Assembly: GCA_021787535.1 (NCBI GenBank)
Contig: JAJYLR010000001.1
Coordinates: forward strand, 83,648-147,647
DNA from: a bacterium
GTDB taxonomy: Bacteria; Patescibacteriota; CPR2; UBA1875; JAJYID01
DNA: 64,000 nt
Direction: 5' to 3'
Part shown: in pieces, positions 6,676 to 62,778 of the stretch
Numbering within the stretch: the stretch's first letter is position 1
How the letters are laid out: every line of letters starts with the position of its first letter
The notes under the pieces: model-generated
Database searches by the model: none
What the model was told of the DNA's origin: nothing
Seen by the model: the letters and a program-made list of their open reading frames with translations, nothing else
Program-made: the position numbers and the translations under genes

Positions 6676-7443
6676 TTATATTCTCTTCCATATATCCCCG
6701 GTAAGGCCAAACTGCCTTGCCTTGGCTTCGGTCGTCAAATGGATTGCCAGTTCCGGTTCATCCAACAGGGCAAGTCTGGTTTTGAAATAGCGCTTCACAT
6801 AAGTTAGTACGTCGTTGCTTGGGCAGATTATCAAAATAGTTGGAAAGTCCGTTTCTGTCTCAGCTTCCCAGTCGCTCCACTGATAAAAAGAAAGATATTT
6901 TCTGACTCTTTGCCTTAATCTTTCCTTTGGCACATTGTAAAGTATCTCCAAGAAATAATCTTTGGTTTGATTCTTGGTCGTTTGCCGAATATAGGCGGTT
7001 GGCGAGAGGTCTTTCAAGAGTTCCCCCGAGGGGTGATTATCATACTCGCTTTTCACACTCACTTCGAATCTCACTTTCCGGCTGTCTCTGTTTGTTAGAT
7101 CAAGGCAAATGTCGGCAAGCAAAAGACAGGAATTTATGAAAGAAACTGATCTTTCATTTTCCCTGTAATATTTCTGGACTGTTTTGACAGATATATTTTT
7201 ATGCTCCTTTAAATAACGGATGCCGGCTTTGGCGAGATGGTACACGGCCGGCTGAGTGTTTTTGCAAGAAGGCTTAATATATTCTTTTTTGCTCAAGTCT
7301 TTCAGCCACCTGTTTATTCCTGCTTCATCTTTATGACGCAAAAATCTTTGGATCTGAATGCGATTTAAGAACCTGTAACGAAATAAAAGAGATATAATCT
7401 CTCCCTGCCTTTTGGTTATGTCTGTTTCTTCTGTGTTAGCCAT
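6676..7443 (-). CDS. Replication-relaxation family protein (winged-helix, plasmid/ICE-associated)
   Basis: The N-terminus TDITKRQGEIISLLFRYRFLNRIQIQRFL is typical of the replication-relaxation family. It is 255 aa and adjacent to the coupling-ATPase gene. Confidence 0.5.
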   Translation of the reverse strand: MANTEETDITKRQGEIISLLFRYRFLNRIQIQRFLRHKDEAGINRWLKDLSKKEYIKPSCKNTQPAVYHLAKAGIRYLKEHKNISVKTVQKYYRENERSVSFINSCLLLADICLDLTNRDSRKVRFEVSVKSEYDNHPSGELLKDLSPTAYIRQTTKNQTKDYFLEILYNVPKERLRQRVRKYLSFYQWSDWEAETETDFPTILIICPSNDVLTYVKRYFKTRLALLDEPELAIHLTTEAKARQFGLTGDIWKRI

Positions 7444-7584
7444 TGGTTTAATTGTTCTTTCAAAAATGGATATATTAGCTTATACAATTCTGCCAATCCC
7501 TTCCTGCACCTTTCTTGTATGGGTAGAGGTAAAAGAATTAAGATGTTTTGAACTTGAAAATTGCAAATTTTTGTCGCAGCAAGA

Positions 7585-20614: not shown

Positions 20615-20656
20615 GTATAGAGTATGCAGTATTGGGTATTGGGGGTTGTCACACTC

Positions 20657-20703
20657 TATCATTCCGAGCGACTTCGCGGTAGCGACGAGCCGAGGAATCC
20701 CTT
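20657..20703. repeat. Palindromic element, type C (GTCATTCCGAGCG...CGAGGAATCCC), intergenic copy
   Basis: tcattccgagcgacttcgcggtagcgacgagccgaggaatccc. The same element occurs inverted at 37801-37848 and as variants inside uvrD and acs. Confidence 0.8.
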
Positions 20704-20735: not shown

Positions 20736-20763
20736 AGATTCCCGCCTGCGCGGGAATGACAAA
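20736..20763. repeat. Palindromic element, type B (GATTCCCGCCTGCGCGGGAATGAC), intergenic copy
   Basis: Identical or near-identical copies at 38295-38320 (in ppsA) and 54436-54463 (in uvrD). Confidence 0.85.
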
Positions 20764-20797
20764 TAAGAGAAACAGGAATGACAAGTAAAGGAGCATT

Positions 20798-33947: not shown

Positions 33948-34037
33948 CTTTCTTTGTCATCCCGAGTGGAGCGATAGCGTAATCAAGGGATCTTTTTCCG
34001 AGGATTAAGGGATTCCTCCGCTTTGGTCGGAATGACA
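33948..34037. repeat. Composite palindromic element (type C variants) in the intergenic DNA upstream of the phosphoribosyltransferase gene
   Basis: tttgtcatcccgagtggagcgatagcgtaatcaagggatc ... gggattcctccgctttggtcggaatgacag. Confidence 0.65.
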
Positions 34038-34048
34038 GAGGAGATAAT

Positions 34049-37678: not shown

Positions 37679-37800
37679 AGAAAAGAGTAAAATAAGAATG
37701 ACTAATTACCAATATCTAATAACCAATCAATTCTAAAATTTAAAAATTAATTAATTGAAAATTGACTGGAAATTGGGACTTGAAAATTAGAAATTAAGGT

Positions 37801-37848
37801 TAAGGGATTCCTCGGCTTGTCGCTACCGCGAAGTCGCTCGGAATGACA
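37801..37848. repeat. Palindromic element type C, inverted copy of 20657-20703, upstream of ppsA
   Basis: gggattcctcggcttgtcgctaccgcgaagtcgctcggaatgacaaa is the reverse complement of the 20.66-kb copy, with 1-2 differences. Confidence 0.8.
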
Positions 37849-37863
37849 AAAACGGAGGGTTGA

Positions 37864-41246: not shown

Positions 41247-42547
41247 AGATAAAAAATATAAAAGCAAATGAAATACTGGATTCACGGGGCAATCCCACCG
41301 TTTCTACCGAGATAGAGTTGGAAAACGGCATAATTTCTCATGCATCGGTTCCCAGCGGGGCGTCGACCGGTATTCATGAGGCGCATGAGCTGCGTGACGG
41401 CGACATGAAACGTTTTGACGGCAAAGGAGTCTTAAAGGCCTGTCAAAACATTGAGCAGATTATACAGCCGGAAATTAAAAAAATTGACATTGAAAATCAG
41501 GCGGAAATCGATAGTAAAATGTGCGAGCTGGACGGCACAAAAAACAAGGAAAAACTCGGAGCAAATGCTATTTTAGCGGTTTCGATCGCGGCTCTTAGGG
41601 CTCATGCCGCACATAACGGTAAAGAGCTGTATGAGATTATCGGCGAGCTTTACGGATTTCATGATTTTCGCCTTCCCAAGCCCTTGTCGGTTATTCTAGA
41701 AGGCGGCAAACATTCGGATTCTAATTGTGAAATCCAAGAATTCATGATTCAAATCGAGGAAGAGAAAATCGAGGAAAATTTACGGAAGATTGAACTTGTT
41801 TACCATTCGCTTGAGCAGGTGCTTGAAAGCCAGGGTAAAAATACCAACATTGGTTATGAAGGAGCATTTGGTCCGAATTTAACCTCGAACCGGGAGGGGC
41901 TTGATCTGATTATGCAGGCGATTGAAATGTCCGGATTAAAGCCCCGATATGATGTGCGTATTGCCCTCGATATTGCTGCCAGTGAATTTTACGATACTGA
42001 GAGCAGCCAATACCTTCTAAAAAGTGAGAACATTGCTCTGCGCGGGAGCCAGATGGTGGCTTACAATGAAGAGTTAGCGAGGGATTATCCTATCCTTTCT
42101 ATCGAAGACGGCATGTACGAGGATGACTGGGAAGGATGGCAAGCGCTCTATGAGCGTCTGGGCGATAAAATCATGCTGGTTGGCGACGATCTGTTTGTGA
42201 CCAACACCGAGCGCATTAGAAATGGCATTGATCGCCATGCTGCTAACGCAGTTTTGATTAAGCCGAATCAGATTGGTACAGTGACAGAAACCATCGAAGC
42301 TGTCAAAATGACCAAATTTGCCAGTTGGGAACCGATTGTTTCGCACAGGAGCGGAGAGACGAACGATAGTTTTATCGCCGATCTGGCCGTGGCGATCAGC
42401 GCCAAGTATATTAAAGCCGGCGCGCCGGCCAGAGGCGAGAGAGTAGCGAAATATAATCGGCTGATGGAAATTTCCTCTGTCATTCCCGCCCCCGATCGGG
42501 TCGAGGGTAAAGCTTCGGCGGGAATCCAGGAAGATAATTCAAAATGA
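41243..42547 (+). CDS. eno: Enolase
   Basis: ILDSRGNPTV N-terminus, the SHRSGETND signature and IKPNQIGT. Confidence 0.95.
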   Translation: MKIKNIKANEILDSRGNPTVSTEIELENGIISHASVPSGASTGIHEAHELRDGDMKRFDGKGVLKACQNIEQIIQPEIKKIDIENQAEIDSKMCELDGTKNKEKLGANAILAVSIAALRAHAAHNGKELYEIIGELYGFHDFRLPKPLSVILEGGKHSDSNCEIQEFMIQIEEEKIEENLRKIELVYHSLEQVLESQGKNTNIGYEGAFGPNLTSNREGLDLIMQAIEMSGLKPRYDVRIALDIAASEFYDTESSQYLLKSENIALRGSQMVAYNEELARDYPILSIEDGMYEDDWEGWQALYERLGDKIMLVGDDLFVTNTERIRNGIDRHAANAVLIKPNQIGTVTETIEAVKMTKFASWEPIVSHRSGETNDSFIADLAVAISAKYIKAGAPARGERVAKYNRLMEISSVIPAPDRVEGKASAGIQEDNSK

Positions 42548-43186: not shown

Positions 43187-43975
43187 ATGGAGGCGATGCT
43201 GAAATATCTAAAATTAGCTTTATTTTGCATATTGCTTGCGGTTTTTCTCATCTCATTTTTTTACAAGGATGATTTTCATCGCCGGACAGAGATTGTACCA
43301 GATGCTTTGAACGATCCTGTTCAAACCGACCTAAAAGATAAAACTCCTGTTACTTTTGAAAGAGACGGATACTCTTACAAAGTGACGCCGCTTTATGATT
43401 ATGATATCAGCGGCATGCTTGTCCATAAAAACGATTATCGTTTTTTCAGTTTGGATAAGGTTGACAATGCCATTCCCTTTGATTTTTGCATGATATGGGG
43501 CCAAAATCTCGCAACCGGCACTTACGAAGATAGTTCTTTAAAATTCAGCCAGGACAGCCGGTTTTGTAATGCTACATGGGGTCCCGGAGTTGGTCTCAAG
43601 ATTTCCGATGTTTCGAATAACCATTTAATTATCAATGATGATAATGTAGCAAAAGAAGCCAAAAATGTTTCAGTTGGCGATCAAGTCAGGATTAAAGGAG
43701 AACTAGTAAACCTTCAAGCTGTAAGAAATGATCAGCAGGAAACAGAAACTTGGCATACCAGTGTCACAAGAGATGATACCGGAGCCGGGGCTTGTGAAGT
43801 GATTTTAGTCAAAGACATAGAAATCTTAGGAAAGTCAGATTCTTCAATGCGCATATTAAATAAAATTGCTTTCTGGGGCTTAATTCTTTTTATACCTGTC
43901 AATATAATATGGTTTTTTATCAATGTATCTCGCAAAAGAAAACAGATAGAGAAAGATGATCTCTTACCCTATTAG
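43187..43975 (+). CDS. Hypothetical membrane protein (262 aa) with TM helices at both ends
   Basis: Hydrophobic N- and C-terminal segments. No recognisable motifs. Confidence 0.4.
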   Translation: MEAMLKYLKLALFCILLAVFLISFFYKDDFHRRTEIVPDALNDPVQTDLKDKTPVTFERDGYSYKVTPLYDYDISGMLVHKNDYRFFSLDKVDNAIPFDFCMIWGQNLATGTYEDSSLKFSQDSRFCNATWGPGVGLKISDVSNNHLIINDDNVAKEAKNVSVGDQVRIKGELVNLQAVRNDQQETETWHTSVTRDDTGAGACEVILVKDIEILGKSDSSMRILNKIAFWGLILFIPVNIIWFFINVSRKRKQIEKDDLLPY

Positions 43976-44004: not shown

Positions 44005-45276
44005 ATGCAGAAGATTCTTTTTATCATATTTGACGGGCTTGGCGATAGGCCTATCAAAAAATTTGGCGGGCTGACTCCGCTTGAAGCGGCGCATACCCCT
44101 AATATGGATCAATGGGTACACAAGGGCATTTGCGGAACGATGAATGCCATGCCAACCAATTTATATCCGACAAGCGAAGAAGCGCACCTGGCCATTTTCG
44201 GCTATGATTTTGTGAGAGATTATCCCGGACGGGGAGTTTTGGAAGCGCTTGGCATTGGCATTAAATTAAAACCGGATGAGATGGCATTTCGCATAGATTT
44301 CGGGACGGTGGATCAAAGTTTAAAGCTGATTGATCCGAGAGCGGGAGTGATTGAGTCGACTGAGAAGCTGTGCAAGGCGGTCGACGGAGTTGAGGTGGAC
44401 GGGGTAACTTTCAAGATTTATCCTTCGCTTCTATATCGGGGTGTTTTGGTTCTTTCGGGCCAGCCGGTTAAAAATTATCTGAAAAAAGTCAAGCATGCTG
44501 CAATTTCTGATACTGATCCTCACAAAAGCGGGCCTCACAAACTGGATGTTAGAGTGCTTCATCCCCAGTCATTTGGCGAGTGCCGCGAGGGTAAAACGGT
44601 GGCTAGAGCACTGGAGCGGTACCAGTATTTGACGCATGAGATTCTAGAAGAGTATAAGGTTAACAAAAAAAGAGTTAAGCAAGGCCTGCCGCCGGCAAAC
44701 TTTATCCTGGCGCGCGGTGAAGGCAGACTTAAGCCCGTCCAAAGCTTCAAAGATAGATACGGCTTGAAAGCCGCTTGCGTTGCCGGTGCCCCGCTCTACA
44801 AAGGCATTGCTTCATATTTAGGCATGGATGTCCTGCATGTTCGGGGAGCGACCGGAACGCTAGATACAAATGCCGATGCAAAAGTGAAAGCTTCTATAAA
44901 AGCGCTCAAAAAGAATGATTTTGTATTCTTGCATTTCAAAGGAACGGATATGGCAGCCGAAGAACTAGGTAGTCCAGAGCTCAAAAAGAAATTCATCGAG
45001 AAAGTTGACAAATCGTTTTCAAGACTTTCCGGGCTCAAAAATGTTATGATAGTAGTGACCGGTGATCACTCGACACCCTGTGAACTGCACGACCATTCGA
45101 CAGATCCAGTACCGCTGTTAATTAACAGCCAATTTCCAATACCTAATGCCCGATTAAATTCCCAAGGCAAAAGGTCAAATGCCAAGTTTGGAGAGAGCGA
45201 GTGCAAAGATGGCAATTTGGGACATATTTATGGGAAAGACATGATGAAAAAATTATTGGAAATGAGGGCAATGTAG
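44005..45276 (+). CDS. apgM: 2,3-bisphosphoglycerate-independent phosphoglycerate mutase, archaeal type
   Basis: The N-terminal ILFIIFDGLGDRP metal-binding motif characteristic of ApgM. The size is 423 aa. Confidence 0.8.
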   Translation: MQKILFIIFDGLGDRPIKKFGGLTPLEAAHTPNMDQWVHKGICGTMNAMPTNLYPTSEEAHLAIFGYDFVRDYPGRGVLEALGIGIKLKPDEMAFRIDFGTVDQSLKLIDPRAGVIESTEKLCKAVDGVEVDGVTFKIYPSLLYRGVLVLSGQPVKNYLKKVKHAAISDTDPHKSGPHKLDVRVLHPQSFGECREGKTVARALERYQYLTHEILEEYKVNKKRVKQGLPPANFILARGEGRLKPVQSFKDRYGLKAACVAGAPLYKGIASYLGMDVLHVRGATGTLDTNADAKVKASIKALKKNDFVFLHFKGTDMAAEELGSPELKKKFIEKVDKSFSRLSGLKNVMIVVTGDHSTPCELHDHSTDPVPLLINSQFPIPNARLNSQGKRSNAKFGESECKDGNLGHIYGKDMMKKLLEMRAM

Positions 45277-47166: not shown

Positions 47167-47231
47167 GATAAAAAACCAATGACCTATACCCAATAACTAA
47201 TCAAATCCTAATTTAAAAATTTTAAAATTCA

Positions 47232-49571
47232 TTGATTGAAAATTCAAAAATCGGAGGGGCTTTGCTAGATCGTTTCTTCAATCCAAAGAGTGTAGCTGTT
47301 ATCGGGGCTTCTCATCATAAAGAGAAGCTTGGGTTTTTGGTTTATGACAATATCAGAAAATACGGTTATAAAGGAAAACTTTATGGAGTGAATATCAAGG
47401 GCGGTTCCGCACATATTTCGCGTAAAAAATCAGGAGCGCAAAATATGTGCGGAATTCCACTCTACAAAACTGTAGGCGATATCCCTGGGCCGATAGATTT
47501 AGCTGTTGTGGTGATACCTGCGAAAGCTGTACCTCAAATAGTTAAAGATTGCGGTAAAAAAGGAATAACTTCTGTCATTATTATCTCGGCCGGGTTTTCT
47601 GAAACTGGAGCAGAAGGCAAAAAGTTAGAGGAAAAAATTGCCGATTTGTCACATAAATACGGTATCAGAATCTTGGGGCCGAACTGTCTCGGCATCATCG
47701 ACTCTTGGAGCAAAATGAACGCCTCTTTTGCCGAAAGTATGCCGGACAAGATGAAGATTTCTCTTCTTTCCCAGTCAGGAGCCATCTGCACGGCTATTTT
47801 AGACTGGGCCAATAGCGAAGAAATCGGTTTCTCCAGATTTATTTCTTTGGGCAATAAGCTTGATATCGATGAAAATGATGTCTTGGCTTATCTAGCCCGT
47901 GACACAAAAACCAAAGTTGTCCTGGCATATCTCGAAAGCATTGCCGATGGCCAGAAATTTATGGATAATGCTAGAAATCTTGCCTTGAAAAAGCCATTTA
48001 TCATGGTGAAGTCAGGCCGAACCAGCGAAGGCGCCAAAAGCATCTCTTCTCATACGGGCAGTATTGCCGGGTCGGATATTGTTATCGATACCGCTCTTCG
48101 CCAGAGCGGAGTGATACGGGCTGAGAGCTTAGAGGACCTCTTTGATCTGGCAAAAATATTTGCCTTTTCACCGGAAATGAAAGGCAAGAACGTTGCTGTT
48201 ATTTCAAATGCCGGCGGTCCGGCAGTTATGCTTGCCGATACGATTGGTCAAAGCCGCTTAAAGCTGGCTAAGTTTGAGCCAAAAACCCGTAAAATTCTAG
48301 AAGAGACATTGCCTCCTGAAGCTGCGACTCATAATCCTGTAGACGTCATCGGTGATGCCAGAGCCGATCGTTATGAAACTGCTACTTGCGAGGTTTTAAA
48401 AGATGAAAATGTTGATGCGGCCATAGTTGTTTTAACACCCCAAGTTATGACAGAGATTGAAGCGACAGCTAAAGTCATTAACAAGGCAAAAAAGTACGGA
48501 AAACCTTTGGCGGTATCTTTTATTGGCGGAGAAAAAGTCGGAGATGGCAGGAAAATTCTCGAAGACTTTGAAATACCTTCATATGAGTTTCCGGAGAGAG
48601 CGATCAAAGCGCTAGAAGCACTATTTGAGTACTATGAATTTAAGAGACACTATGGTCTTTGTCATTCCGACTGCCACCACGTGAGTTGCAAGCGGAGGAA
48701 TCCCTTAAAGAATAGCCAATTTCCAATAACCAATGACCAATCAAGCTCTAATAATCAGATGTCAAACAAAGGTGGTCATTCTGGGGACGGCAGGACCCCG
48801 GAATCTAATACAGATAAGGATTCTGGACAGGTCAGAATGACGAACAACAGGCAAAAGGTATCTGAAATTATCGGACCGGTATTTAACCGGCGCCAAAAGC
48901 TTATCACAGACGGAAGTTCGAGCGCTTTTGATGTTTTTGACGCCTATGGTATCAGCACTATCAAAAGAGCATATGGTCTGGGACTAAAGGATTTGAAAAA
49001 GAAATCGGAAGAACTGGGGTTTCCGCTTGTTGCGAAGACTTGCGCCGAAGGCGTTTTGCACAAAACGGATATTGGCGGAGTCAAGTTGGGTATGAGAGAT
49101 GAAAGCGAACTGCAAAAAGCGTATTTTTCAATTTGTAATAAAGTGCGAAAAGCTGGTTTCGAGGAGGGTTCGGATCGGGTTGACATTTATAAACAAGAAG
49201 AGGACGGCGTCCAAATATTTCTGGGCGCAAAAAAGGATTCCAGTTTTGGACCGCTCATAATTTTTGGTTTAGGCGGAATATTCGTCGAGGCGCTTAAAGA
49301 TTTTTCATATAGAATCGCGCCGGTTACGCATACCGAGGCCAAGAGAATGATCGGCGAAATAAGATCGCAGAAAGTTCTAAACGGTTTTCGGGGCATGCCG
49401 GAAGTTGATCGGGACAAAGTGGCAGATGCAATCGTTGGTTTGTCCCAGCTTATGCTCGACTTCCCGGAAATCAAAGAAGTAGATATTAATCCCTTAATGG
49501 CAACGGATAAAAAATGCGTTGCCATAGACGGAAAAATAATTTTGGACTTAGAAGTAGACCATGGTTTCTAA
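47232..49571 (+). CDS. Acetyl-CoA synthetase (ADP-forming), fused alpha/beta type. The real start is probably the TTG at 47265, which has a GGAGG RBS.
   Basis: The CoA-binding N-terminus FFNPKSVAVIGAS, succinyl-CoA-synthetase-like flavodoxin domains and a C-terminal ATP-grasp. A ~60-aa repeat-element insertion sits in the inter-domain linker. Confidence 0.85.
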   Translation: MIENSKIGGALLDRFFNPKSVAVIGASHHKEKLGFLVYDNIRKYGYKGKLYGVNIKGGSAHISRKKSGAQNMCGIPLYKTVGDIPGPIDLAVVVIPAKAVPQIVKDCGKKGITSVIIISAGFSETGAEGKKLEEKIADLSHKYGIRILGPNCLGIIDSWSKMNASFAESMPDKMKISLLSQSGAICTAILDWANSEEIGFSRFISLGNKLDIDENDVLAYLARDTKTKVVLAYLESIADGQKFMDNARNLALKKPFIMVKSGRTSEGAKSISSHTGSIAGSDIVIDTALRQSGVIRAESLEDLFDLAKIFAFSPEMKGKNVAVISNAGGPAVMLADTIGQSRLKLAKFEPKTRKILEETLPPEAATHNPVDVIGDARADRYETATCEVLKDENVDAAIVVLTPQVMTEIEATAKVINKAKKYGKPLAVSFIGGEKVGDGRKILEDFEIPSYEFPERAIKALEALFEYYEFKRHYGLCHSDCHHVSCKRRNPLKNSQFPITNDQSSSNNQMSNKGGHSGDGRTPESNTDKDSGQVRMTNNRQKVSEIIGPVFNRRQKLITDGSSSAFDVFDAYGISTIKRAYGLGLKDLKKKSEELGFPLVAKTCAEGVLHKTDIGGVKLGMRDESELQKAYFSICNKVRKAGFEEGSDRVDIYKQEEDGVQIFLGAKKDSSFGPLIIFGLGGIFVEALKDFSYRIAPVTHTEAKRMIGEIRSQKVLNGFRGMPEVDRDKVADAIVGLSQLMLDFPEIKEVDINPLMATDKKCVAIDGKIILDLEVDHGF
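48661..48842. repeat. Composite in-frame insertion in the acs linker: type C variant, a CCAAT-type heptamer stretch, and a full type A element (gtcattctggggacggcaggaccccggaatc-N13-gattctggacaggtcagaatgac)
   Basis: Read directly. It is translated as CHSDCHHVSCKRRNPLKNSQFPITNDQSSSNNQMSNKGGHSGDGRTPESNTDKDSGQVRMT. Confidence 0.85.
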
Positions 49572-49655
49572 AATTGATTTACAAAGCCAAGGGTGTTAAA
49601 CCAAGGGTTGACTTTGTGAATTTGAAAGCTTATTCTGTTTAAACTATCTTGAATT

Positions 49656-49955
49656 TTGACAAAGGAGGCGGCAATGGGATGTTCTTTCGAAGAGTCTTTT
49701 GAAGACTGGAGAAAGATGGAACAAGCACGCGAGAGATATGTAGTAAAGTACAGGCAAGAACAAAAAGAGCTGATGCAGTTTCCTTGCTACTGCGATGAGT
49801 CGGTTTTTGAGGGGACTGATAACTGTTCGAAAACATGCCCAGAAATTGCCGATTCGTGTAAGCGCAGGGTCGCTTTTCAGAGAAACCCGGAAGCAGCAGC
49901 AGATTTACTTGAGTCAGCGAATGATATGCGGGCATTGATAGCGCGGACATCATAA
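49656..49955 (+). CDS. Small Cys-rich hypothetical protein (99 aa)
   Basis: aaaggagg RBS. Followed by the hairpin gggacttgc-tgcatt-gcaagtccc at 49969-49992. Confidence 0.35.
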   Translation: MTKEAAMGCSFEESFEDWRKMEQARERYVVKYRQEQKELMQFPCYCDESVFEGTDNCSKTCPEIADSCKRRVAFQRNPEAAADLLESANDMRALIARTS

Positions 49956-50037
49956 TCAAAATCCAGGATGCCTGGGACTTGCTGCATTGCAAGTCCCTTC
50001 GCCTTTATGTTAAAATTATTTAGTAATTGGAGGGTGA

Positions 50038-51141
50038 GTGGCAACTCAAACTAAAACTAAAACGGTTTTAATGACCGGGAATCAAGCGGTGGTGAAAGCG
50101 GCTTTGGCTGTCGGTGCTGAGATGTTCAGCGGTTATCCGATAACGCCGACTACTGAAATTCTGACCGAATGGTCAAAAGCGGCCGAAAATAATAAAGATC
50201 TCATATTTTTGCAGACCGAGGATGAGCCGGCGGCCGGCTTTGTGATGATTGGCGGAGTTTCCATGGGCAAAAAGGCTTGGACGGCGACAGCCGGCGTCGG
50301 GCACGTTCTGATGCAGGATCCGCTCTCTATGGCAGAAGCTATGAGAATCCCGACGGTGACTTATATCGGCCAGCGCGGCGGTCCCTCAACCGGCACAGTG
50401 ATCTATTCCCAGCAAGAGCTGAATCTGGCTCGGATGGGCGGAAACGGCGAAGGCCTTCGCATCGTCTTTGCGCCTTCGAACCTGCAAGAACTCTACGATC
50501 TGACCATTAAGGCATTTAATGTAGCTTGGAAATACCGGTTTCCGACATTTATTCTATCCGACGGATATCTTGCCAAAACATATGGAGAAATTGAGCTTTG
50601 GCAGCCAAACAAATCGGAAATCGTGCCGACCGAAAGTTTCTTTTTGAATCCCAAAACAAGTCCGAACAATATCAGAAACTGCTACTCTATGGAGGTTGAG
50701 CTTTATGACCAACTGCTCAAAGACTTTGCCGATTATGCCAAAATGTCAGAGAAAGTTGAAGAAAGCGAGCTACTTGGCGACAAGAAGACAAATCTTTTAG
50801 TTTGCGCCTGGGGTGCGGTAGGAAACTCGGCTAAAACAGCGCTTAAGGCACTGGAAAAACAAAACATTTATTTTAAACTTTTCCGTCCGATTACTCTTAG
50901 GCCGTTTCCGGCAAAAGATCTGCAAAAAGCGGCGGAAGGAGTGACGGATATCCTCATTTTAGAGTCAGCAAACGGGCAGTTTGGCCGCATTGTGCGAGAA
51001 TCTTTGTATGGCACGACCGAAGCCGAAGTGCATCGCCTGTACAAACCGGCTATGGGCATCATGCCGGAAGAAATTCAAGCCAAAGTTAAGGAAGTATTTA
51101 AATTGGAGGATTCTGGACAAGCCAGAATGACGCAATCATGA
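50038..51141 (+). CDS. 2-oxoacid:ferredoxin oxidoreductase alpha subunit (pyruvate/2-ketoisovalerate type)
   Basis: LMTGNQAVVKAALAVGAEMFSGYPITPTTEI matches the PorA/KorA N-terminus. The C-terminal tail EDSGQARMTQS is encoded by a type A half-element. Confidence 0.85.
   Translation: MATQTKTKTVLMTGNQAVVKAALAVGAEMFSGYPITPTTEILTEWSKAAENNKDLIFLQTEDEPAAGFVMIGGVSMGKKAWTATAGVGHVLMQDPLSMAEAMRIPTVTYIGQRGGPSTGTVIYSQQELNLARMGGNGEGLRIVFAPSNLQELYDLTIKAFNVAWKYRFPTFILSDGYLAKTYGEIELWQPNKSEIVPTESFFLNPKTSPNNIRNCYSMEVELYDQLLKDFADYAKMSEKVEESELLGDKKTNLLVCAWGAVGNSAKTALKALEKQNIYFKLFRPITLRPFPAKDLQKAAEGVTDILILESANGQFGRIVRESLYGTTEAEVHRLYKPAMGIMPEEIQAKVKEVFKLEDSGQARMTQS
51108..51131. repeat. Type A half-element (ggattctggacaagccagaatgac) forming the 3' end of the OFOR alpha gene
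   Basis: Identical to the copy at 39403-39425. Confidence 0.85.
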
Positions 51142-51896
51142 TAAGCCCTCGATTTGCTTCGACAATTAAACCTTCTTCAAAACCATCGAACTTCTGTCCA
51201 GGATGTGGCCATTCCATAATCCTCAAGAATTTAGGGCAGATAATATCAGATCTCAAAATAGAAAAAAAGACGGTATTTCCCATAGACATCGGCTGTTCGC
51301 TTCTGGCTTGGGATTTTTTTGATGTTGATACTTTCCAGACACATCATGGCCGGACCACGGCAGCAGCAGTGGGACAGAAAAGGGCGCGTCCGGATGCTAT
51401 TATCCTCGCTTACATGGGCGACGGCGGAGGGTATGCCATCGGACTGCAAAACTTAGTTCATGCCTGCTATCGCAATGAGAATATTACGGTGATTTTGGTC
51501 AACAATACTATGTTTTCCATGACCGGAGGACAGATGGCGCCGACATCTTTGCCGCATGAGGTAACATCATCATCGCCGGACGGTGCATTTACCCAAGACA
51601 AACCCTTCTACGGTCCGGAAATGCTGGCTCGCGAAGCCCATGACGGCGCATATATCGCCAGAGCGGCCGTCTCAAATCCGGGGCAGATGAAAGCTTATAT
51701 GCAAAAAGCTATCCAAAATCAGATAGACGGCAAAGGTTTTTCATTTGTCGAAGTGCTTTCGTACTGTCCGACGAACTGGAAGACAAACGCCGAACAAACA
51801 ATTAGGTTTTTAGAAAAAATGAAAGAAACGTTTCCGGTAGGAGAGATTAAAAATCCTTCTCTGTCATCCCGAGCCCATTCGACAAGCTCAGGATAA
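51138..51896 (+). CDS. 2-oxoacid:ferredoxin oxidoreductase beta subunit (TPP-binding)
   Basis: FCPGCGH near the N-terminus, and a GDGG thiamine-diphosphate-binding motif. The start overlaps the alpha-subunit stop. The C-terminal 15 aa and the stop are encoded by a type C element. Confidence 0.85.
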   Translation: MISPRFASTIKPSSKPSNFCPGCGHSIILKNLGQIISDLKIEKKTVFPIDIGCSLLAWDFFDVDTFQTHHGRTTAAAVGQKRARPDAIILAYMGDGGGYAIGLQNLVHACYRNENITVILVNNTMFSMTGGQMAPTSLPHEVTSSSPDGAFTQDKPFYGPEMLAREAHDGAYIARAAVSNPGQMKAYMQKAIQNQIDGKGFSFVEVLSYCPTNWKTNAEQTIRFLEKMKETFPVGEIKNPSLSSRAHSTSSG

Positions 51897-51925
51897 ACTC
51901 CGCAATAGCGGAGTCGAGGGATCCC
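51863..51925. repeat. Type C variant element (gtcatcccgagcccattcgacaagctcagg...gagtcgagggatccc) spanning the 3' end of the OFOR beta gene
   Basis: It encodes the ...PSLSSRAHSTSSG tail and the TAA stop. Confidence 0.75.
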
Positions 51926-51930
51926 TTAAA

Positions 51931-53377: not shown

Positions 53378-54098
53378 CATTGCACTTTGAGAATATTCGC
53401 GGTTTATACAGCTGTAATTGGTTTCTAGATTAGAGATCAGTTATAGCTGTATAAGCAAAAGTTTCCTCTCGGGTGCCACTGGAAAGTGGGACGAGGGGAC
53501 CCTCTGTACTCCCAGGGGGATACATGAGCAACCCGGAGATTGGGGAAGAGGTTGTTCTGAAAGGGAGCCGAATATAGCAGCCCCAACTGCGTATGTCGGG
53601 CCAGGTCCTCTGGTTACTCCATGAAAAACCTCATGTGGAGGTCAATGATAGAAGGAGGATATCCTGATCTAGTTTTACTGGTCTTCTATCGTTGCATCGT
53701 TAAAAGGAGATATGCACGGCAACCGCAATCTCGCCCCGAAGGAGGGAATAAAGCGGTACCAGTTGCAACTGGACGTGCGTGGGTTCTCTATTCAGTCAGG
53801 AGAATAGTTAATCTACGCTTTCAAAGATTCCCAAGGGCTTGGCTTTTATTGAAGTTCCCTCCGATGGCGGAAGGAGAGCGCTGCTCTCATATTTCTTGCC
53901 GCCCAGTGCGCCACATATGTTGGGGTACTGATCTGTGTGAGGGGGTCGGAGCTATTGGGGTCGCGGTTCTCCCGTCCTCCTTAAGGAGGCTTAGAACGAA
54001 CCGAAGTCGGTAGGGTGCCCAAATCCGGAGCCCTGAATACGCACCCTGCCCAACTAGTAAGGGACGCCTCCAATTGGAGGCGTCCCGATTTCTTTTTG
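53378..54098 (+). ncRNA. Candidate large structured ncRNA (~0.7 kb) of unknown class: promoter-to-terminator unit, GC-rich, no credible ORF
   Basis: ~52% GC against a ~40% background. Multiple GNRA-capped hairpins (ctggaaagtgg, gttctgaaaggg). Long-range complementarity cgggtgcc (53470s) with gcaccctg (54040s) would close the molecule. It ends in a perfect hairpin plus U-run. The overlapping ORFs are Arg/Pro/Trp-rich junk. Bacterial RNase P P4 motifs and tmRNA ends were looked for and not found. Confidence 0.3.
54061..54098 (+). terminator. Rho-independent terminator
   Basis: gggacgcctcc-aatt-ggaggcgtccc (an 11-bp perfect stem) followed by gatttcttttt. Confidence 0.8.
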
Positions 54099-54139
54099 TA
54101 TACTTACTCTCACTTCCCAAATCCGCTATAATAGAATGC

Positions 54140-56647
54140 ATGGCGGATTTTTTAGATGATTTAAATGAGATGCAGAAAGAGGCGGTCAAAACTACCGAAG
54201 GGCCCCTTCTTATTTTAGCCGGGGCCGGCAGCGGCAAGACCAAAGCCCTGACTTACCGCATCGCTTACTTAATTAGCGAAAAAAATGTCGATCCGGAGCG
54301 GATTTTGGCCGTGACTTTTACCAATAAAGCGGCCAAGGAAATGGTCTCGAGAGTTGAGAAACTACTCTCGAGAAATAACCAATTTCCAAGTCCCAATTTC
54401 CAATCAATTTTCAATGATCAAAATTCAAAAAGTCTGGATTCCCGCCTTCGCGGGAATGACAAGGAGGGAAAGGGATCCGTCGACTCCCATTCGGCTGCGC
54501 TCAGGGCAGGCTTTCGCGAAGTCGCTCAGAATGACAGAAAAGGGGAGCAAGAAGTCTGTCGAAATGACCCACGCACCGAAAATGGTGCGGGGCAAGCAAT
54601 ACAGAATACCGAATACTCAATACAGCATACTGTCACCGGCCGCAGGCCTGTCATGGGTACTTTTCACTCTGTTTGCGTCAAAATTCTACGGCGGGAGATA
54701 GGCCATCTCGGCTATAAATCGAGCTTTACCATTTATGACTCGGGCGACTCCAATAGGGCGGTAAAGATTGCCATGAAAGAACTCTCTATTGATGAGAAGA
54801 AATTCAATCCCAGAACAATACAAAATTACATCTCCTCGGCAAAAAATGAGCTGATTGGCGAGAAAGAGTACGCTGCGCTCGTCAACGGCTATATCCAGGA
54901 AATGGCTTCCAAAGTGTACTTTGAATACCAAAAAATTCTTAAAAACGCCCATGCGCTGGACTTTGACGATCTGATTATGAAGACGGTAGAAATCTTCCAA
55001 AAATTTCCAGAAATCTTGGAGAAATATCAGAAGCAATTCAAATATATTCATATAGATGAGTATCAGGACACAAACCACGCCCAGTATGTTTTTTCAAAAC
55101 TGCTGGCAGCTAAACATGAAAATATCTGTGTGGTGGGGGACGACTGGCAAAGTGTTTATGCATTTCGCGGGGCGAACTTCCAGAACATCCTAGATTTCGA
55201 GAAGGATTATCCGAATGCAAAAGTGGTCAAACTTGAGCAAAATTATAGATCAACAAAAACCATTTTGGATGCTGCCCATCATATTATCAAAAAGAATGAA
55301 AACCGAAGCGACAAAGAGCTCTGGACTGAAAACATTCTGGGTGTTCCTATCCTGACATTTGAGGCAAAAGACGAGGTAGATGAAGGAAGATTTATCATTC
55401 AGGAAATTTCGAGTTCAGCCCGCGATCTTTCTGATTTTGCTGTTTTATACCGCACAAATGCCCAGTCAAGAAGCCTTGAAGAACAGTTTCTAAAAGCCGG
55501 CATGAAGTACAGGATTTTCGGAGGAGTGAGGTTCTATGAGCGAAAGGAAATTAAAGATATTATCGCATACCTCAGGTTCATTCAGAATCCAAATGACTGG
55601 GTGGCGCTCGAGCGGATTATCAATGTTCCGTCGAGAGGAATAGGGGCAGCTAGTTTGAAAAAAATAAAGGAATTTTTTTCAAATAATTTGCAATTTCCAA
55701 TTTCCAATTTTCAATCAAATTCCAATAACCAAATTCCAAACAAAAGCCGTCATTTTGGGGACGATAGGACTCCAGAATCAAACTCGGATAAGGATTCTGG
55801 TCAAGCCAGAATGACGGAAGGTAAGGGTGACTTGGTTGGTATACTGGAAAAAGTGAAATTCAGCAATATTCTTTCCGGCAAAGCGCTAGCCGGATTTAAG
55901 TCATTTATGAAAGCCATTATTGAGCTCGAAGATCAGAAAGATAAATTGCAACTGGTGAAGTTCATCGATCAGGTTATGAAAAAAACCGGCTACTATGATT
56001 CGCTTGATGACAAAACTATCCAAGGTGAAGAAAGGCAGGAAAACCTGAAAGAGCTTTTGTCGGTAGCAGAGGAATTTGTCAAGGATAGAGAAGACTTCGG
56101 TCTTGAGGATTTTCTCGAGGAAGTGGCTCTTATTTCCGATATTGATAACTACTCGGAAGACGAGCAGTCCGTGGCGCTTATGACCTTGCATTCGGCCAAA
56201 GGGCTCGAGTTTCCCTGTGTTTTCATTGCCGGGATGGAAGAGGGGATCTTTCCGCATTCTCGTTCACAGCTTGATATCGAAGAAATGGAAGAAGAGCGCA
56301 GATTGGCATATGTCGGTATCACAAGAGCAAAAGAAAGAGCGTATCTGGTTAGCGCTCGCAGGCGTCTTCTCTATGGAAACTATCAGTCCAATCCGGCGTC
56401 GAGATTCATCTCTGATATTCCCGGTGAGCTCAAGAAAGACATTAACCGGTTTGAAACGTCATTGGACTCAAAGATTTATGAAAAGCAAATCCCGCAGTTT
56501 GCTCCCGGAGAAAAAGTTCTGCATGACAAGTTTGGCGTAGGCATAGTCCAAGACGTCAAAGGCGATGAGATGACTGTATCTTTTGAAAAGGTGGTGGGTC
56601 TCAAAGTTCTCTCTACCATTTACGCGCCGATTGAGAAGATAAGATGA
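54140..56647 (+). CDS. uvrD: ATP-dependent DNA helicase UvrD/PcrA (SF1). The ORF-track start at 54074 lies inside the upstream terminator; the ATG at 54140 is preferred.
   Basis: Motif I LLILAGAGSGKTKALTYRIAYLI, then GTFHSVC, DEYQDTN and later SF1 motifs. tataat at 54127-54132 sits 7 nt before the ATG, implying a leaderless mRNA. There are two large in-frame repeat insertions. Confidence 0.85.
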   Translation: MADFLDDLNEMQKEAVKTTEGPLLILAGAGSGKTKALTYRIAYLISEKNVDPERILAVTFTNKAAKEMVSRVEKLLSRNNQFPSPNFQSIFNDQNSKSLDSRLRGNDKEGKGSVDSHSAALRAGFREVAQNDRKGEQEVCRNDPRTENGAGQAIQNTEYSIQHTVTGRRPVMGTFHSVCVKILRREIGHLGYKSSFTIYDSGDSNRAVKIAMKELSIDEKKFNPRTIQNYISSAKNELIGEKEYAALVNGYIQEMASKVYFEYQKILKNAHALDFDDLIMKTVEIFQKFPEILEKYQKQFKYIHIDEYQDTNHAQYVFSKLLAAKHENICVVGDDWQSVYAFRGANFQNILDFEKDYPNAKVVKLEQNYRSTKTILDAAHHIIKKNENRSDKELWTENILGVPILTFEAKDEVDEGRFIIQEISSSARDLSDFAVLYRTNAQSRSLEEQFLKAGMKYRIFGGVRFYERKEIKDIIAYLRFIQNPNDWVALERIINVPSRGIGAASLKKIKEFFSNNLQFPISNFQSNSNNQIPNKSRHFGDDRTPESNSDKDSGQARMTEGKGDLVGILEKVKFSNILSGKALAGFKSFMKAIIELEDQKDKLQLVKFIDQVMKKTGYYDSLDDKTIQGEERQENLKELLSVAEEFVKDREDFGLEDFLEEVALISDIDNYSEDEQSVALMTLHSAKGLEFPCVFIAGMEEGIFPHSRSQLDIEEMEEERRLAYVGITRAKERAYLVSARRRLLYGNYQSNPASRFISDIPGELKKDINRFETSLDSKIYEKQIPQFAPGEKVLHDKFGVGIVQDVKGDEMTVSFEKVVGLKVLSTIYAPIEKIR
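54370..54655. repeat. ~285-bp composite in-frame insertion in uvrD between helicase motifs I and Ia: heptamer stretch, type B element, an inverted type C variant, and AATAC-type repeats
   Basis: Translated as a ~95-aa insert: SRNNQFPSPNFQSIFNDQNSKSLDSRLRGNDKEGKGSVDSHSAALRAGFREVAQNDRKGEQEVCRNDPRTENGAGQAIQNTEYSIQHTVTGRRPV. The type B copy at 54436-54463 matches 20736-20763. Confidence 0.85.
55684..55814. repeat. Composite in-frame insertion in uvrD: (AATTTCC)-type heptamer stretch plus a full type A element (gtcattttggggacgataggactccagaatc-N13-gattctggtcaagccagaatgac)
   Basis: Translated as NLQFPISNFQSNSNNQIPNKSRHFGDDRTPESNSDKDSGQARMT. Confidence 0.85.
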
Positions 56648-59051: not shown

Positions 59052-59289
59052 CGTCCAAGGCGTTTTCTATCGCTTTAGCGCGAAGATGGAGGCGGAAAAG
59101 CTGGGAATAACAGGTTTTGGTGAAAATGAGTCTGATGACAGTGTCCTTATAATCGCAGAAGGCGAACAGGAAGCGTTGGAAAAATTTAGCCGGTGGTTGA
59201 AAGAAGGCCCGCCGATGGCTGAAGTTGAAGATGTACAGATCGAGGAAGATGATTATACTGGAGAATTTAAAGGTTTCGAGGTCCGGTAA
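59020..59289 (+). CDS. acyP: Acylphosphatase
   Basis: The VTGDVQGVFYRFSAKMEAEKLGITGF acylphosphatase signature. It overlaps the rsmA 3' end in another frame, and the exact start is uncertain. Confidence 0.65.
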   Translation: MRRWRIKVTGDVQGVFYRFSAKMEAEKLGITGFGENESDDSVLIIAEGEQEALEKFSRWLKEGPPMAEVEDVQIEEDDYTGEFKGFEVR

Positions 59290-60011
59290 TGCTGTATGTA
59301 GTTTCTACTCCGATTGGTAATCTGGATGACATCACTCTTCGCGCGCTCGAAACCTTAAAGAATGTCGATCTTGTTGCCTGCGAAGATACGCGCCATACAA
59401 AAATCCTGCTTGATAAGCATAGTATCCCTTTTTGTCATTCTGGGGACGGTAGGACGCCAGAATCTGATTCTGGGCAAGCCAGAATGACGAGCCGGTCACG
59501 GCTCGTCAGCTATCATCAGCATTCAGGGTCAGTAAAAACCGAGAAAATTCTAACGATGCTGAAAGATGGCAAAGATGTTGCTCTTGTGACTGATGCCGGT
59601 ACGCCCGGTATTTCTGATCCTGGCAGTAAGTTAGTTGCCGAAGCAGCAGCAGATGGTATCGAGATTACATCCATTCCGGGCCCTGCCGCCTTTGTGAGTG
59701 CTTTAAGCGTTTCTGGATTTGACACTTCTGAATTTATTTTTATCGGATTTCTTCCTCACAAAAAGGGACGGCAAACAAAGCTGAAAGAAATAAGCGGTGA
59801 AAAGCGGACAGTTGTGTTGTATGAATCGGTACATCGGATAAAAAAGTTGTTCGGAGAGCTGTCAGAAATTATTCCAAACAGAGAGATATGTGTTTGCCGT
59901 GAACTGACTAAGAAATTTGAAGAGATCTATCGTGGAAAACCATCAGAGCTCATGGATCAAATTATAGAAAAAGGAGAATTTGCGGTTGTTATAGGAGGCA
60001 GAAATGATTAA
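59289..60011 (+). CDS. rsmI: 16S rRNA C1402 2'-O-methyltransferase (tetrapyrrole-methylase fold)
   Basis: LYVVSTPIGNLDDITLRALETLKNVDLVACEDTRHT matches the RsmI N-terminus. It contains one in-frame type A insertion. Confidence 0.85.
   Translation: MLYVVSTPIGNLDDITLRALETLKNVDLVACEDTRHTKILLDKHSIPFCHSGDGRTPESDSGQARMTSRSRLVSYHQHSGSVKTEKILTMLKDGKDVALVTDAGTPGISDPGSKLVAEAAADGIEITSIPGPAAFVSALSVSGFDTSEFIFIGFLPHKKGRQTKLKEISGEKRTVVLYESVHRIKKLFGELSEIIPNREICVCRELTKKFEEIYRGKPSELMDQIIEKGEFAVVIGGRND
59434..59488. repeat. Full type A element, short form (gtcattctggggacggtaggacgccagaatc-tgattctgggcaagccagaatgac), in frame in rsmI
   Basis: Translated as CHSGDGRTPESDSGQARMT. Confidence 0.85.
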
Positions 60012-61326: not shown

Positions 61327-62778
61327 ATGTCTAAAAAGTTTTATATAGATACTTCTATTCCGTATGCAAACGGAAATCCCCACATAGGACATCCTCTGGA
61401 TCCTTTATACGGTGATGTTCTAGCAAGATATTATCGCGCTAACGGTTATGATGTTTTTTTTCTTGTCGGCTTGGACGAGAATGGCCAAAGCGTTTACAAC
61501 AAAGCCAAATGCGCGGAAGTCCCGGTTCAGGAGTTTACTGAGAATGTGCGCAAGAAATTCATAGAAATGCATGAAAAGTTAAATGATTCTTACGATGGAT
61601 TTATCAGGACTACCGATAAAAAACTGCATTGGCCGACGGCGCAGGAGATATGGAAAAGGGCTGAGAAGGCCGGTGATATTTACAAAAAAAACTATCAAGG
61701 GCTTTACTGTGTCGGTTGTGAAGAGTTCAAGCTGGAAAGAGATTTGGTTGATGGCAAATGTCCGGATCACCAAACCAAACCGGAGAAAATCGAGGAGGAA
61801 AACTATTTCTTCAAACTCTCAAATTACCAAAAATTTTTACAGGATTTGTTTGATAAAAATCCGGATTTTGTTTATCCGAAAAACAAATATAACGAAGCTT
61901 ATCAAATCATCAAAGGTGGGCTGGAAGACGTAAGTATTTCCCGGCCGAAGGAAAGGCTTCCGTGGGGTGTACCCGTGCCGGGTGATGACAGCCACGTTAT
62001 GTATGTCTGGTTTGACGCGCTGACAAATTACTTATCCGGTATTGGGTTTACCTCAGACAAAAAGAAATTCGAAAGGTATTGGCCGACTGACCTAAACATC
62101 GTTGGCAAAGACAACAACAAATGGCATTCTATTCTCTGGCCGGCAATTTTAAAGTCGGTAGGACTTCAGTTGCCTAAGAAAGTTTTTGTTCATGGGCACG
62201 TTCTTGGCAAAGGCAATGTAAAGATGAGCAAAACGATAGGCAACGTAGTCGATCCGATGGAGATGATTGATAAATATGGGGCTGATGCTTTTCGATATTT
62301 TATTCTTGCCAAAATCCCAGTGGATTCTGATGGCGCCTTTGATGAAGATCATTTCAGGGAAGTTTATAATTCAGAGCTTTCAAATAAGTTGGGTAATCTT
62401 TTACAGAGAACAATTTCAATGATTAATAAGTATAATGTAAAAATTTCTGACAAGGAGATCGACAGGTTTGGCGGAAGCATAGACGAAAAGATCGGGAATT
62501 TAGATTTTAATGGGGCTTTGCGTTCAGTTATTAGAATGGTAGAGGTGGCAAATGAAGAAATTGATAGTAAAAGACCTTGGGAATTGGCAAAATCTGGTAA
62601 AACGAGAGAGCTAAATGCATTATTAAGTGAAATCTATTGGATATTGAATTCAGTAGCCAAAAATATCTATCCTTTCATGCCCGACACCAGTAAAAAAATG
62701 AAAAAACAGCTTAAAAATTTAAAACCGGTACCTTTGTTTCCGAGGATGGAGAAAGATTCCCGATCGGGTCGGGAATGA
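61327..62778 (+). CDS. metG: Methionyl-tRNA synthetase (class I, compact form)
   Basis: The HIGH motif ANGNPHIGHPL, the KMSKS motif VKMSKTIGN, and the zinc-knuckle region CVGCEEF...CPDHQ. Confidence 0.9.
   Translation: MSKKFYIDTSIPYANGNPHIGHPLDPLYGDVLARYYRANGYDVFFLVGLDENGQSVYNKAKCAEVPVQEFTENVRKKFIEMHEKLNDSYDGFIRTTDKKLHWPTAQEIWKRAEKAGDIYKKNYQGLYCVGCEEFKLERDLVDGKCPDHQTKPEKIEEENYFFKLSNYQKFLQDLFDKNPDFVYPKNKYNEAYQIIKGGLEDVSISRPKERLPWGVPVPGDDSHVMYVWFDALTNYLSGIGFTSDKKKFERYWPTDLNIVGKDNNKWHSILWPAILKSVGLQLPKKVFVHGHVLGKGNVKMSKTIGNVVDPMEMIDKYGADAFRYFILAKIPVDSDGAFDEDHFREVYNSELSNKLGNLLQRTISMINKYNVKISDKEIDRFGGSIDEKIGNLDFNGALRSVIRMVEVANEEIDSKRPWELAKSGKTRELNALLSEIYWILNSVAKNIYPFMPDTSKKMKKQLKNLKPVPLFPRMEKDSRSGRE

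Follow-up and report, generated by a model that had tools for sequence, protein, structure and literature searches.

In-frame mosaic of dispersed REP-like repeats in the inter-domain linker of a fused ADP-forming acyl-CoA synthetase from a Patescibacteria-type genome

The 182-bp block and its host gene

The DNA analyzed here (the window) is a 64,000-nt stretch of contig JAJYLR010000001.1, from a genome of the Patescibacteria type, and the subject of this report is a 182-bp block at positions 48661-48842 that lies within the gene for a fused ADP-forming acyl-CoA synthetase. The open reading frame (ORF) of the synthetase is open over 47232..49571 on the plus strand and comprises 779 codons from a TTG at 47232, to which all residue numbers refer. 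The true start is likely the TTG at 47262, downstream of a Shine-Dalgarno-like GGAGGGG (47253-47259), which would yield a protein of 769 aa, equal in length to the database copy, P0001. Pfam domains were found in the order CoA_binding (residues 17-156), Succ_CoA_lig (175-310), Ligase_CoA_2 (321-463), and ATP-grasp_5 (563-771); 7888 homologs were present in the protein database, and 8wzu, 9y43, and 4xyl were identified as relatives in the PDB. Residues H274 (in SSHTGS) and H610 were invariant over 118 aligned synthetase sequences, and the invariant residues of the family are intact in this protein. Judged by its sequence, the protein has the five-domain architecture, with the phosphohistidine loop of the alpha part and the His of the beta part both conserved, and it is best assigned as a fused ADP-forming acyl-CoA synthetase of the acetate--CoA ligase family, which may act on acetate or on another acid.

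A sequence-only reading of the window had described the block as a composite of a type C palindrome variant, a CCAAT-type heptamer stretch, and a full ~68-bp type A element. All three modules were recovered, as a variant copy of the type C repeat, a period-7 tract, and a 68-bp inverted dimer of units resembling repetitive extragenic palindromic (REP) sequences (Table 1). The type C family, with the pattern GTCATTCC...GGAATCCCTTAA, is dispersed through the window, and in the block its core (GTCATTCCGACTGCCACCACGTGAGTTGCAAGCGGAGGAATCC, 48661-48703) is extended by family-conserved flanks. In blastn-short comparisons the ends of this copy showed 17/17 identities to 34007-34023 and 13/13 to 37838-37850, with matches also at 37802-37850 and 20692-20703, and the copy was 70% identical to 20654-20703. 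The description as a variant was borne out, since the ends match the family and the middle is unique, but the word palindrome was only weakly justified: pairing is limited to ATTCC/GGAAT, and the fold z-score was -0.42 for the synthetase copy and ~0 for the intergenic copies. Type C is better called a repeat whose ends are short and inverted than a true palindrome, and the label was dropped because its copies fold no better than shuffled sequence.

Tandem Repeats Finder (TRF) placed the heptamer tract at 48711-48741 (period 7, 4.4 copies, 79% matches). The tract belongs to repeat families D3 and D8, with 4-7 copies within the window, and the same module also occurs in intergenic DNA at 47171-47221, immediately upstream of the synthetase gene. 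Heptamer tract, spacer, and REP dimer together make up a composite unit of ~135 nt, as seen in the 77% identity over 136 nt between 48707-48842 and 55681-55816 (family D6). The type A dimer at 48775-48842 measures exactly 68 bp, its two hairpin units lying in inverted orientation; its outer arms are GTCATTCTGG / TCAGAATGAC, its inner arms are CCGGAATC / GATTCTGG, and its right unit ends in GAATGACG, which is a CGTC tag on the opposite strand. Other copies in the window lie at 55749-55816 (82% identical) and 59434-59489, and the DNA fold z-score was -2.7 for the synthetase copy and -3.9 and -4.7 for two sister copies. Elsewhere the dimer has a basal form of 56 nt with a 1-nt spacer, whereas a 13-nt spacer is common to the synthetase and UvrD copies. 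This longer spacer looks as if it had arisen when 12-13 nt of the right unit's 5' arm were duplicated and then diverged, and TRF detected a 12-nt duplication at 39390-39413. Over the whole window, RGAATGAC occurred 20 times on the plus strand, compared with 2.8 copies expected from shuffles. In a comparison with MITEs, which have terminal inverted repeats, a target-site duplication, and a parent IS element, terminal inverted repeats of 10 bp were found, 19-nt arms with 79% complementarity bracket the entire 182-bp block, and no flanking direct repeat was common to 7 aligned copies. A single large structured RNA was considered and dropped, the fold of the whole 206-nt region (z = -1.24) not being significant, and so was an internal promoter or attenuator, as a scan showed no promoter-like or terminator-like site on the plus strand within the element. 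The window had no Rfam match at gathering thresholds, and ARAGORN found no tRNA or tmRNA in it.

The block corresponds to codons 477-537 and reads CHSDCHHVSCKRRNPLKNSQFPITNDQSSSNNQMSNKGGHSGDGRTPESNTDKDSGQVRMT; positions 48660-48842 read CHSDCHHVSC...DSGQVRMT over 61 codons, in agreement with the in-frame linker of ~60 aa proposed earlier. Of the six frames of 48658-48845, that of the synthetase gene alone is open; the other five hold 3-6 stops each, and the open frame of this stretch arises in 2.8% of shuffles. Since 182 is not a multiple of 3 and the net gain relative to homologs is ~52-55 residues, either part of the native linker has been replaced or the boundaries are fuzzy. Predicted tryptic peptides of the insert are GGHSGDGR, TPESNTDK, DSGQVR, and NSQFPITNDQSSSNNQMSNK. 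The Cys/His cluster (C477, H478, C481, H482, H483, C486) derives from TGTCAT, encoding Cys-His, and the unique loop, and the sister linker, VHFQEEKPKH, is without it; the earlier view of the cluster as a by-product of the repeat thus stands. When the 64-residue insert peptide was used as query, no candidate was returned from a word-indexed protein database. A profile of the insert peptides, a short and low-complexity query, gave 0 matches at E <= 0.001 among 1.84 billion representative proteins, a set whose cluster representatives may be without the insert. Because both searches were empty, the range of host proteins given below was taken from DNA pattern scans.

The insert falls between Ligase_CoA_2 and ATP-grasp_5 and thus, as had been read from the sequence, between the CoA-binding alpha part and the ATP-grasp beta part. 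In the 118-sequence alignment, the linker segment, from the last helix of the alpha part to the first helix of the beta part, is 13-19 residues long in 115 sequences, compared with 69 residues here, 42 in P0002, and 40 in P0004; in line with the sequence-only reading, the insert is not conserved in distant homologs. The alpha subunit of the two-subunit archaeal enzyme 4xyl (4xyl_A) aligns to residues 12-470 and its beta subunit (4xyl_B) to 569-771, and the break between the two chains maps onto the insert. In 9y43 the alpha-like part is C-terminal (chain residues 249-700). Some relatives therefore have a chain break at this junction, and in another the alpha-like part stands at the opposite end of the chain. 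An AlphaFold model built from the 118 sequences (pTM 0.84) had pLDDT values below 50 and no secondary structure at residues 478-535, consistent with the disorder that had been expected, and confident helices at 454-473 and 540-552 flank the insert. The only other weak internal stretch of the model, residues 60-71 (pLDDT likewise below 50), is a second palindromic insert, described below.

In a neighbor-joining tree, the window protein grouped with P0002 at 100% bootstrap, P0003 joined next at 88%, and P0004 paired with P0006 at 100%. The linker DNA of P0002 (locus L001) holds a shorter insert, in which the type-C-like start is decayed and an AT-rich tract and a single GTCATT unit remain, which argues that the insert predates the split of the window and P0002 genomes; we regard the insert as old. 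The next-nearest relative, P0003 (locus L010), is without the insert and its synthetase has 709 aa. In the other clade, P0004 (locus L003) carries a separate type-C-like element (GTCATCCCGAG...CCCTTAGAA) at the same linker, and its sister P0006 does not. The elements of P0002 and P0004 indicate that the linker was hit, or retained an insert, at least twice and is a recurrently tolerated site.

The second insertion in the synthetase gene is unrelated to the first (Table 1). Its arms, TTCCGCACATATTT ... AAATATGTGCGGAA, enclose a 22-nt loop, and the DNA fold has z = -5.6. It was absent from all 15 close homologs aligned, no further copy was found in the window, and it could have originated from another repeat family or a template-switch event.

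Table 1. Repeat modules, their host genes, and gains relative to the syntenic locus L010 (GCA_030647205.1) or, where stated, L001.
Feature	Position	Strand	Basis	Remarks
Fused ADP-forming acyl-CoA synthetase (acetate--CoA ligase family), host gene	47262..49571	+	Pfam, homologs, PDB relatives	
Type C repeat, variant copy	48658-48706	+		Ends TTTGTCATTCCGA and CGGAGGAATCCCTT conserved, 22-nt middle unique; translation CHSDCHHVSCKRRNP
Heptamer tract (NNCCAAT) x 4-5	48711-48745	+	TRF, repeat families D3 and D8	Translation SQFPITNDQ
Composite spacer, ...CAAACAAAGGTG	48746-48774	+	7-copy alignment	Conserved ahead of REP dimer in intragenic copies
Type A left hairpin unit, GTCATTCTGGGG-ACGGCAGGA-CCCCGGAATC	48775-48805	+	Folding, copy comparison	
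Type A 13-nt spacer	48806-48818	+	Comparison of 12 full dimer copies	
Type A right hairpin unit, GATTCTGGACAGGTCAGAATGACG	48819-48842	+	Families D4 and D5, 6-7 copies	Translation DSGQVRMT
Second, unrelated in-frame palindromic insertion in synthetase	47405-47454	+		Perfect 14-bp arms; adds 12 residues in N-terminal CoA-binding domain
Heptamer + type A composite, in frame in UvrD helicase gene (54074..56647)	55681-55816	+		Reads NNLQFPISNFQ...RHFGDDRTPESNSDKDSGQARMT; absent from L010 ortholog
Type A dimer, basal 56-nt form, in frame in TP_methylase-family gene (59289..60011)	59434-59489	+		Reads CHSGDGRTPESDSGQARMT
PPDK	37864-40395		vs L010	+39 aa mosaic; REP units in both inter-domain linkers
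Enolase			vs L010	+15 aa at C-terminus
Phosphoglycerate mutase	45130-45156 (in-frame heptamer tract)		vs L001 and L010	Gain beside tract, +9 aa vs L001, +10 aa vs L010
Synthetase			vs L010	+52 aa in linker, +12 aa from palindrome 47405-47454
POR alpha			vs L010	+12 aa at C-terminus
POR beta			vs L010	+13 aa at C-terminus
UvrD			vs L010	+87 aa and +44 aa
TP_methylase-family gene			vs L010	+22 aa

Recurrence of the modules in other genes and genomes

Locus L010 is syntenic with the window and was used as the empty-site reference. Relative to it, 8 of the 13 syntenic genes carry recognizable repeat-made in-frame insertions or C-terminal extensions (Table 1), and the motif density per 10 kb was 4.1 in the window, 1.4 in L001, and 0.45 in L010. 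Dimers read in the same frame give the peptides GHSGDGRTPESNTDKDSGQVRMT in the synthetase, RHFGDDRTPESNSDKDSGQARMT in UvrD, and CHSGDGRTPESDSGQARMT in the methylase. Three window proteins share the peptides HSGD[GD]RTPES..DSGQARMT and QFPI[ST]N, the latter derived from the heptamers, and DSGQA[RG]MT has three occurrences in PPDK and a further one at the end of POR alpha.

A left-unit scan of 185,579 species genomes recovered four copies in two metagenome-assembled genomes (MAGs), DBS2-1.bin143 and DBS1-2.bin101. All four are intragenic, in the same frame, and preceded by the same heptamer tract and spacer; they lie in the genes for UvrB, for an ELP3-like radical-SAM protein, and for UvrD, where the site is that of the window copy. 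A metagenome scan yielded five loci in which the 56-nt dimer stood in its plain form or was truncated; three of these were almost identical to one another. All five were apparently intergenic, one lying directly after a stop codon, which indicates that the dimer is a free-standing dispersed element. Inverted dimers are known from three window sites and 9 loci of other assemblies. A match in Hyphomicrobium (L005) was set aside as chance or very distant, as it covers 22 nt only, in GC-rich intergenic DNA, and is without the right unit. The 23-nt right unit GATTCTGGNCAAGCCAGAATGAC was also observed in putative viral IMG/VR contigs (L016-L021; 46-58% GC), sometimes beside GTCATTCCCGCTTGTCGGGAATCC, and one of these copies is in frame within a 642-residue open stretch. 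These scans show the hairpin type to be widespread beyond the window lineage, and the ~135-nt composite seems to be restricted to it.

Further copies were observed in and between the window genes. In the 39-residue mosaic of PPDK (38191-38320), a REP unit is combined with a perfect (CCCAATA)x4.1 tract (38257-38285) and with a dRS3-like palindrome, and the two inter-domain linkers of this protein (39004-39031 and 39386-39426) hold REP units reading DSGQAGMT and DSGQDSGQARMT. Slippage of a perfect heptamer tract might in principle put an essential gene such as that of PPDK out of frame, and one may speculate that slippage of (CCCAATA)x4 in PPDK and of other perfect intragenic heptamer tracts could switch genes off and on. 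In UvrD, repeat mosaics lie in frame at 54374-54634 (87 residues) and 55697-55828 (44 residues). The second of these occupies the same site in DBS2-1.bin143 and DBS1-2.bin101, where a 21-nt palindrome is nested in the loop of the right hairpin, and the UvrD/PcrA ortholog of DBS2-1.bin143 (L006, 183-3599, minus strand; 1138 aa) has, besides the repeat composite, what appears to be an intein-like insertion (CCPGDTKV ... VGHNS). Enolase, POR alpha, and POR beta have C-terminal tails built of REP-like units (42479-42547, 51103-51141, and 51855-51930), and the stop codon of a methionyl-tRNA synthetase-like ORF (61327..62778) is the TGA within GGAATGAC at 62755-62778, comparable to GTAG REPs that provide TAG stops. 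Intergenic palindrome copies at 20740-20797, 34005-34048, and 37800-37863 end 5-15 nt before a Shine-Dalgarno-like GGAG and a start codon, in the pattern GGAATGACA, short gap, GGAGG, ATG, which suggests a role in mRNA 5' ends or operon processing.

Other parts of the window were noted in passing. On the minus strand, 2254-10422 encodes an N6/N4 DNA methylase, a Replic_Relax protein, and a 945-residue TraG/VirD4-like coupling ATPase, a block of mobile-element type that is without any RGAATGAC or GTCATTCY unit, which fits a recent acquisition. Two adjacent large ORFs, 23163-28784 (1873 aa) and 28862-32731 (1289 aa), share several ~300-nt segments at ~80% identity (families D1, D2, and D7) and probably encode paralogous surface or repeat proteins. 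The spacer between the synthetase and POR alpha genes (49572-50037) measures 466 bp, compared with 9 bp in L001, and contains a small Cys-rich ORF (49656-49955) that probably starts at ATG 49675 after AGGAGG; no similarity was found between this ORF and an 87-aa ORF at the same position in L010. A 262-residue ORF without Pfam match (43187-43975) lies between the genes for DUF2516 and phosphoglycerate mutase, and nothing corresponds to it at the same place in either of the syntenic loci, L001 and L010.

Interpretation of the linker insert

We consider the insert to be, with a probability of roughly 0.8, a tolerated and translated insertion of the kind represented by REPs and by Rickettsia palindromic elements (RPEs), and one case of a lineage-wide process. 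A mosaic of dispersed, hairpin-forming repeats (CGTC/TGTC-tagged REP-like units together with a heptamer tract) would have lodged in the unconserved alpha-beta linker, the repeat copies probably arriving by transposition or recombination. Selection on an important gene would retain only those copies that lie at permissive sites and whose single open frame coincides with the frame of the gene, and the element would then be transcribed and translated with the enzyme as a disordered, low-complexity passenger loop of ~61 residues. The insert is probably translated in vivo and neutral or nearly so, and it would be tolerated because the junction bears no structural load, the alpha and beta parts of the archaeal enzyme being separate polypeptides. 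Old copies would decay, as in L001, and the same process may have peppered housekeeping genes across the lineage with the same modules. The sequence-only reading had further proposed that such elements are tolerated at domain boundaries; this holds for the present linker but not as a limit, since C-termini and intra-domain loops are also hit.

Several observations weigh against this interpretation. The exact synthetase gene was found in one assembly only. The ~35 window ORFs scanned included no transposase (Y1_Tnp, RAYT/IS200-type, or other), and no flanking direct repeat of the kind left by target-site duplication was shared among 7 aligned copies. The low pLDDT over the insert is partly due to the absence of aligned sequences there. 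In addition, the stems of ten dimer copies (48775-48842, 55749-55816, and 59434-59489 of the window, together with L006-L009 and L011-L013) showed a strand bias, in that all non-Watson-Crick positions but one were sense-strand G.T (G.U in RNA) and none were A.C, the exception being a G.G mismatch in the methylase copy. At least four separate transitions underlie this bias (roughly p = 0.03-0.06), and it is not predicted by a purely neutral-passenger view; it weakly suggests that structure is under a strand-specific constraint, acting either on the mRNA or on a single DNA strand. It is unlikely, in our estimation, that the ~135-nt unit is a lineage-specific mobile coding module that offers one translatable frame, keeps its sense-strand hairpins, acts as an mRNA pause or stability element, and serves as a linker donor. 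If it were, the unit would act in the mRNA between domains while supplying many housekeeping enzymes with disordered linkers.

Large domain movements are part of how this enzyme family works (4xyl-type structures), and the insert might be an adaptive linker, either a metal-binding Cys/His module or a tether for swinging movements of the alpha and beta parts. The CHxxCHHxxC spacing and the maintenance of an open insert in two sister lineages would fit such a role, which we nevertheless hold to be quite improbable: the Cys and His residues are dictated by the repeat and the unique loop, the remainder of the peptide is a module that also occurs in UvrD, UvrB, ELP3-like, and methylase proteins, 115 of the 118 homologs manage with 13-19 residues, and no structure is predicted for the insert in the AlphaFold model. 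The earlier suggestion that CHSDCHHVSC could bind metal found no support, as the cluster is neither conserved nor present in the sister linker. A former intergenic spacer, brought into the coding sequence when separate alpha and beta genes were fused by loss of a stop codon, would account for the heptamer and palindrome modules, of which intergenic regions (including 47171-47221) likewise consist, and two-gene versions of the enzyme do exist in archaea. However, all 117 other aligned homologs are fused, 115 of them with short linkers and P0003/L010 among them, so that a split followed by re-fusion is less parsimonious on the tree than an insertion. As the same modules also occur in single-domain regions of other genes, where fusion is impossible, we judge this origin very improbable.

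Much the same low standing is given to the possibility that the element is absent from the mature protein, whether through RNA removal, ribosomal bypass, protein splicing, or an internal start that would give a beta chain of its own. Although hairpins flank the segment, removal or bypass would require no open frame, and yet the gene frame alone is open, here and in every copy within an intact gene; nor is there an Rfam match in the window that would point to a self-removing RNA. Protein splicing is contradicted by the lack of a Hint or intein Pfam match and by the end of the 61-residue insert, RMT|NN and not His-Asn. An in-frame ATG is present at 48837-48839, inside GAATGAC, but this codon lies within a stem, has no Shine-Dalgarno sequence at a usable distance, and is not accompanied by a promoter-like or terminator-like site on the plus strand of the element. 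Finally, a repeat-induced chimera, or a collapsed or expanded repeat, could be suspected in this repeat-made region of a gene for which one metagenomic contig (636 kb) is the only source. We give hardly any weight to such an assembly artifact, considering that single repeats are at most 70 bp long, that unique synthetase sequence stands on both sides with the frame preserved, that inserts in this linker, homologous or analogous, were also present in independent assemblies (L001/L002 and L003/L004), and that the composite occupies the same UvrD site in two MAGs (L006 and L007). A tolerated, translated repeat insertion remains the interpretation that we prefer.

Comparison with known repeat systems

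According to the portions of Di Nocera 2013 (PMC3733652) that we draw on, CGTC REPs have an unpaired CGTC tag (TGTC or CCTC allowed), an 8-9-bp stem starting with AT, a 4-5-nt loop, and a CCA tail. The same portions describe intragenic clusters that encode 43-82 residues, often in uvr genes, as well as an association of REPs with RAYT transposases; they class RPE-4 and RPE-6 as CGTC REPs and Neisseria dRS3 as CGTC-1, and the five phyla named in them include no Patescibacteria species. Measured against this description, the window repeats agree in their short stem-loop starting with AT, in the unpaired CGTC/TGTC tag at one end, in the formation of inverted dimers and of mosaics with other repeats, in their intragenic copies (notably in uvr genes), and in the lack of a dedicated transposase, as far as the window ORFs scanned show. 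Six window units carry the tag CGTC and about nine carry TGTC; the tag of the left unit is GGTC in the synthetase copy, CGTC in the UvrD copy, and TGTC in the methylase copy. In the synthetase dimer both stems start with AT, the right unit having a 6-7-bp stem, a 5-nt loop, and a CCT tail, and the left unit a 9-bp stem with one G.T pair and a 9-nt loop. The insert units thus fit the quoted description in tag and stem start but deviate from it in stem length, loop length, and tail, which is not CCA. A full fit to the description as quoted was shown by the type B unit of the window, TGTC-ATTCCCGC-GCAG-GCGGGAAT-CCA, with its 8-bp stem, 4-nt loop, and CCA tail, and the copies at 38296-38320 and 54430-54460 agree in stem, loop, and tail. 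This unit also fits ATTCCC-N8-GGGAAT, which we take to be the form of dRS3.

Inverted REP doublets mobilized by RAYT transposases are known as REPINs. The type A dimer resembles them in having two inverted REP units that are separated by a short spacer and can fold as one long or two short hairpins, but its tag is CGTC/TGTC and not GTAG, and the ~35 window ORFs scanned include no RAYT gene. The heptamer tracts recall the cyanobacterial STRR repeats in being period-7 tracts scattered in intergenic DNA, with TGACCAA-type units present in both, and differ from these in being coupled to REP dimers and also translated inside genes. Neither an intein nor a self-splicing intron was indicated, as the protein had no Hint or intein Pfam match and the window no Rfam match.

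For REP biology, these repeats offer a compact system for asking how CGTC-type repeats spread without a known transposase and whether strand-specific hairpins reflect an RNA function; no report of REPs in the candidate phyla radiation (CPR) or Patescibacteria was found in the searchable literature. Most genes of a glycolysis/acetate-fermentation cluster are affected, and the modules would explain many low-complexity insertions in the proteins of such MAGs, where they may confuse annotation, alignment, and structure prediction and at the same time mark structurally permissive sites in enzymes.

The closest parallel in behavior is with the RPEs, for which in-frame insertion, a recurrent peptide, and permissive sites have been described (Ogata 2000, 2002, as summarized in the portions consulted of PMC10969869 and PMC3733652). 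As in Rickettsia, a small genome has dispersed palindromic repeats of ~100-150 nt lying in frame within housekeeping genes that are unrelated to one another, and these repeats are read as a recurrent, family-specific peptide at permissive sites. The present case differs in that the host belongs to a Patescibacteria-like MAG lineage, that a mosaic of type C repeat, heptamer tract, and REP dimer takes the place of a single element, and that the local density reaches 8 of 13 syntenic genes; the likeness is one of behavior, and membership in the RPE families is not claimed. The phenomenon is therefore one already known from Rickettsia, found here in a CPR-type bacterium with a notable local density and a conserved, single-frame composite of heptamer tract and dimer, and it extends the occurrence of Rickettsia-type repeats within genes to a very different lineage with small genomes.

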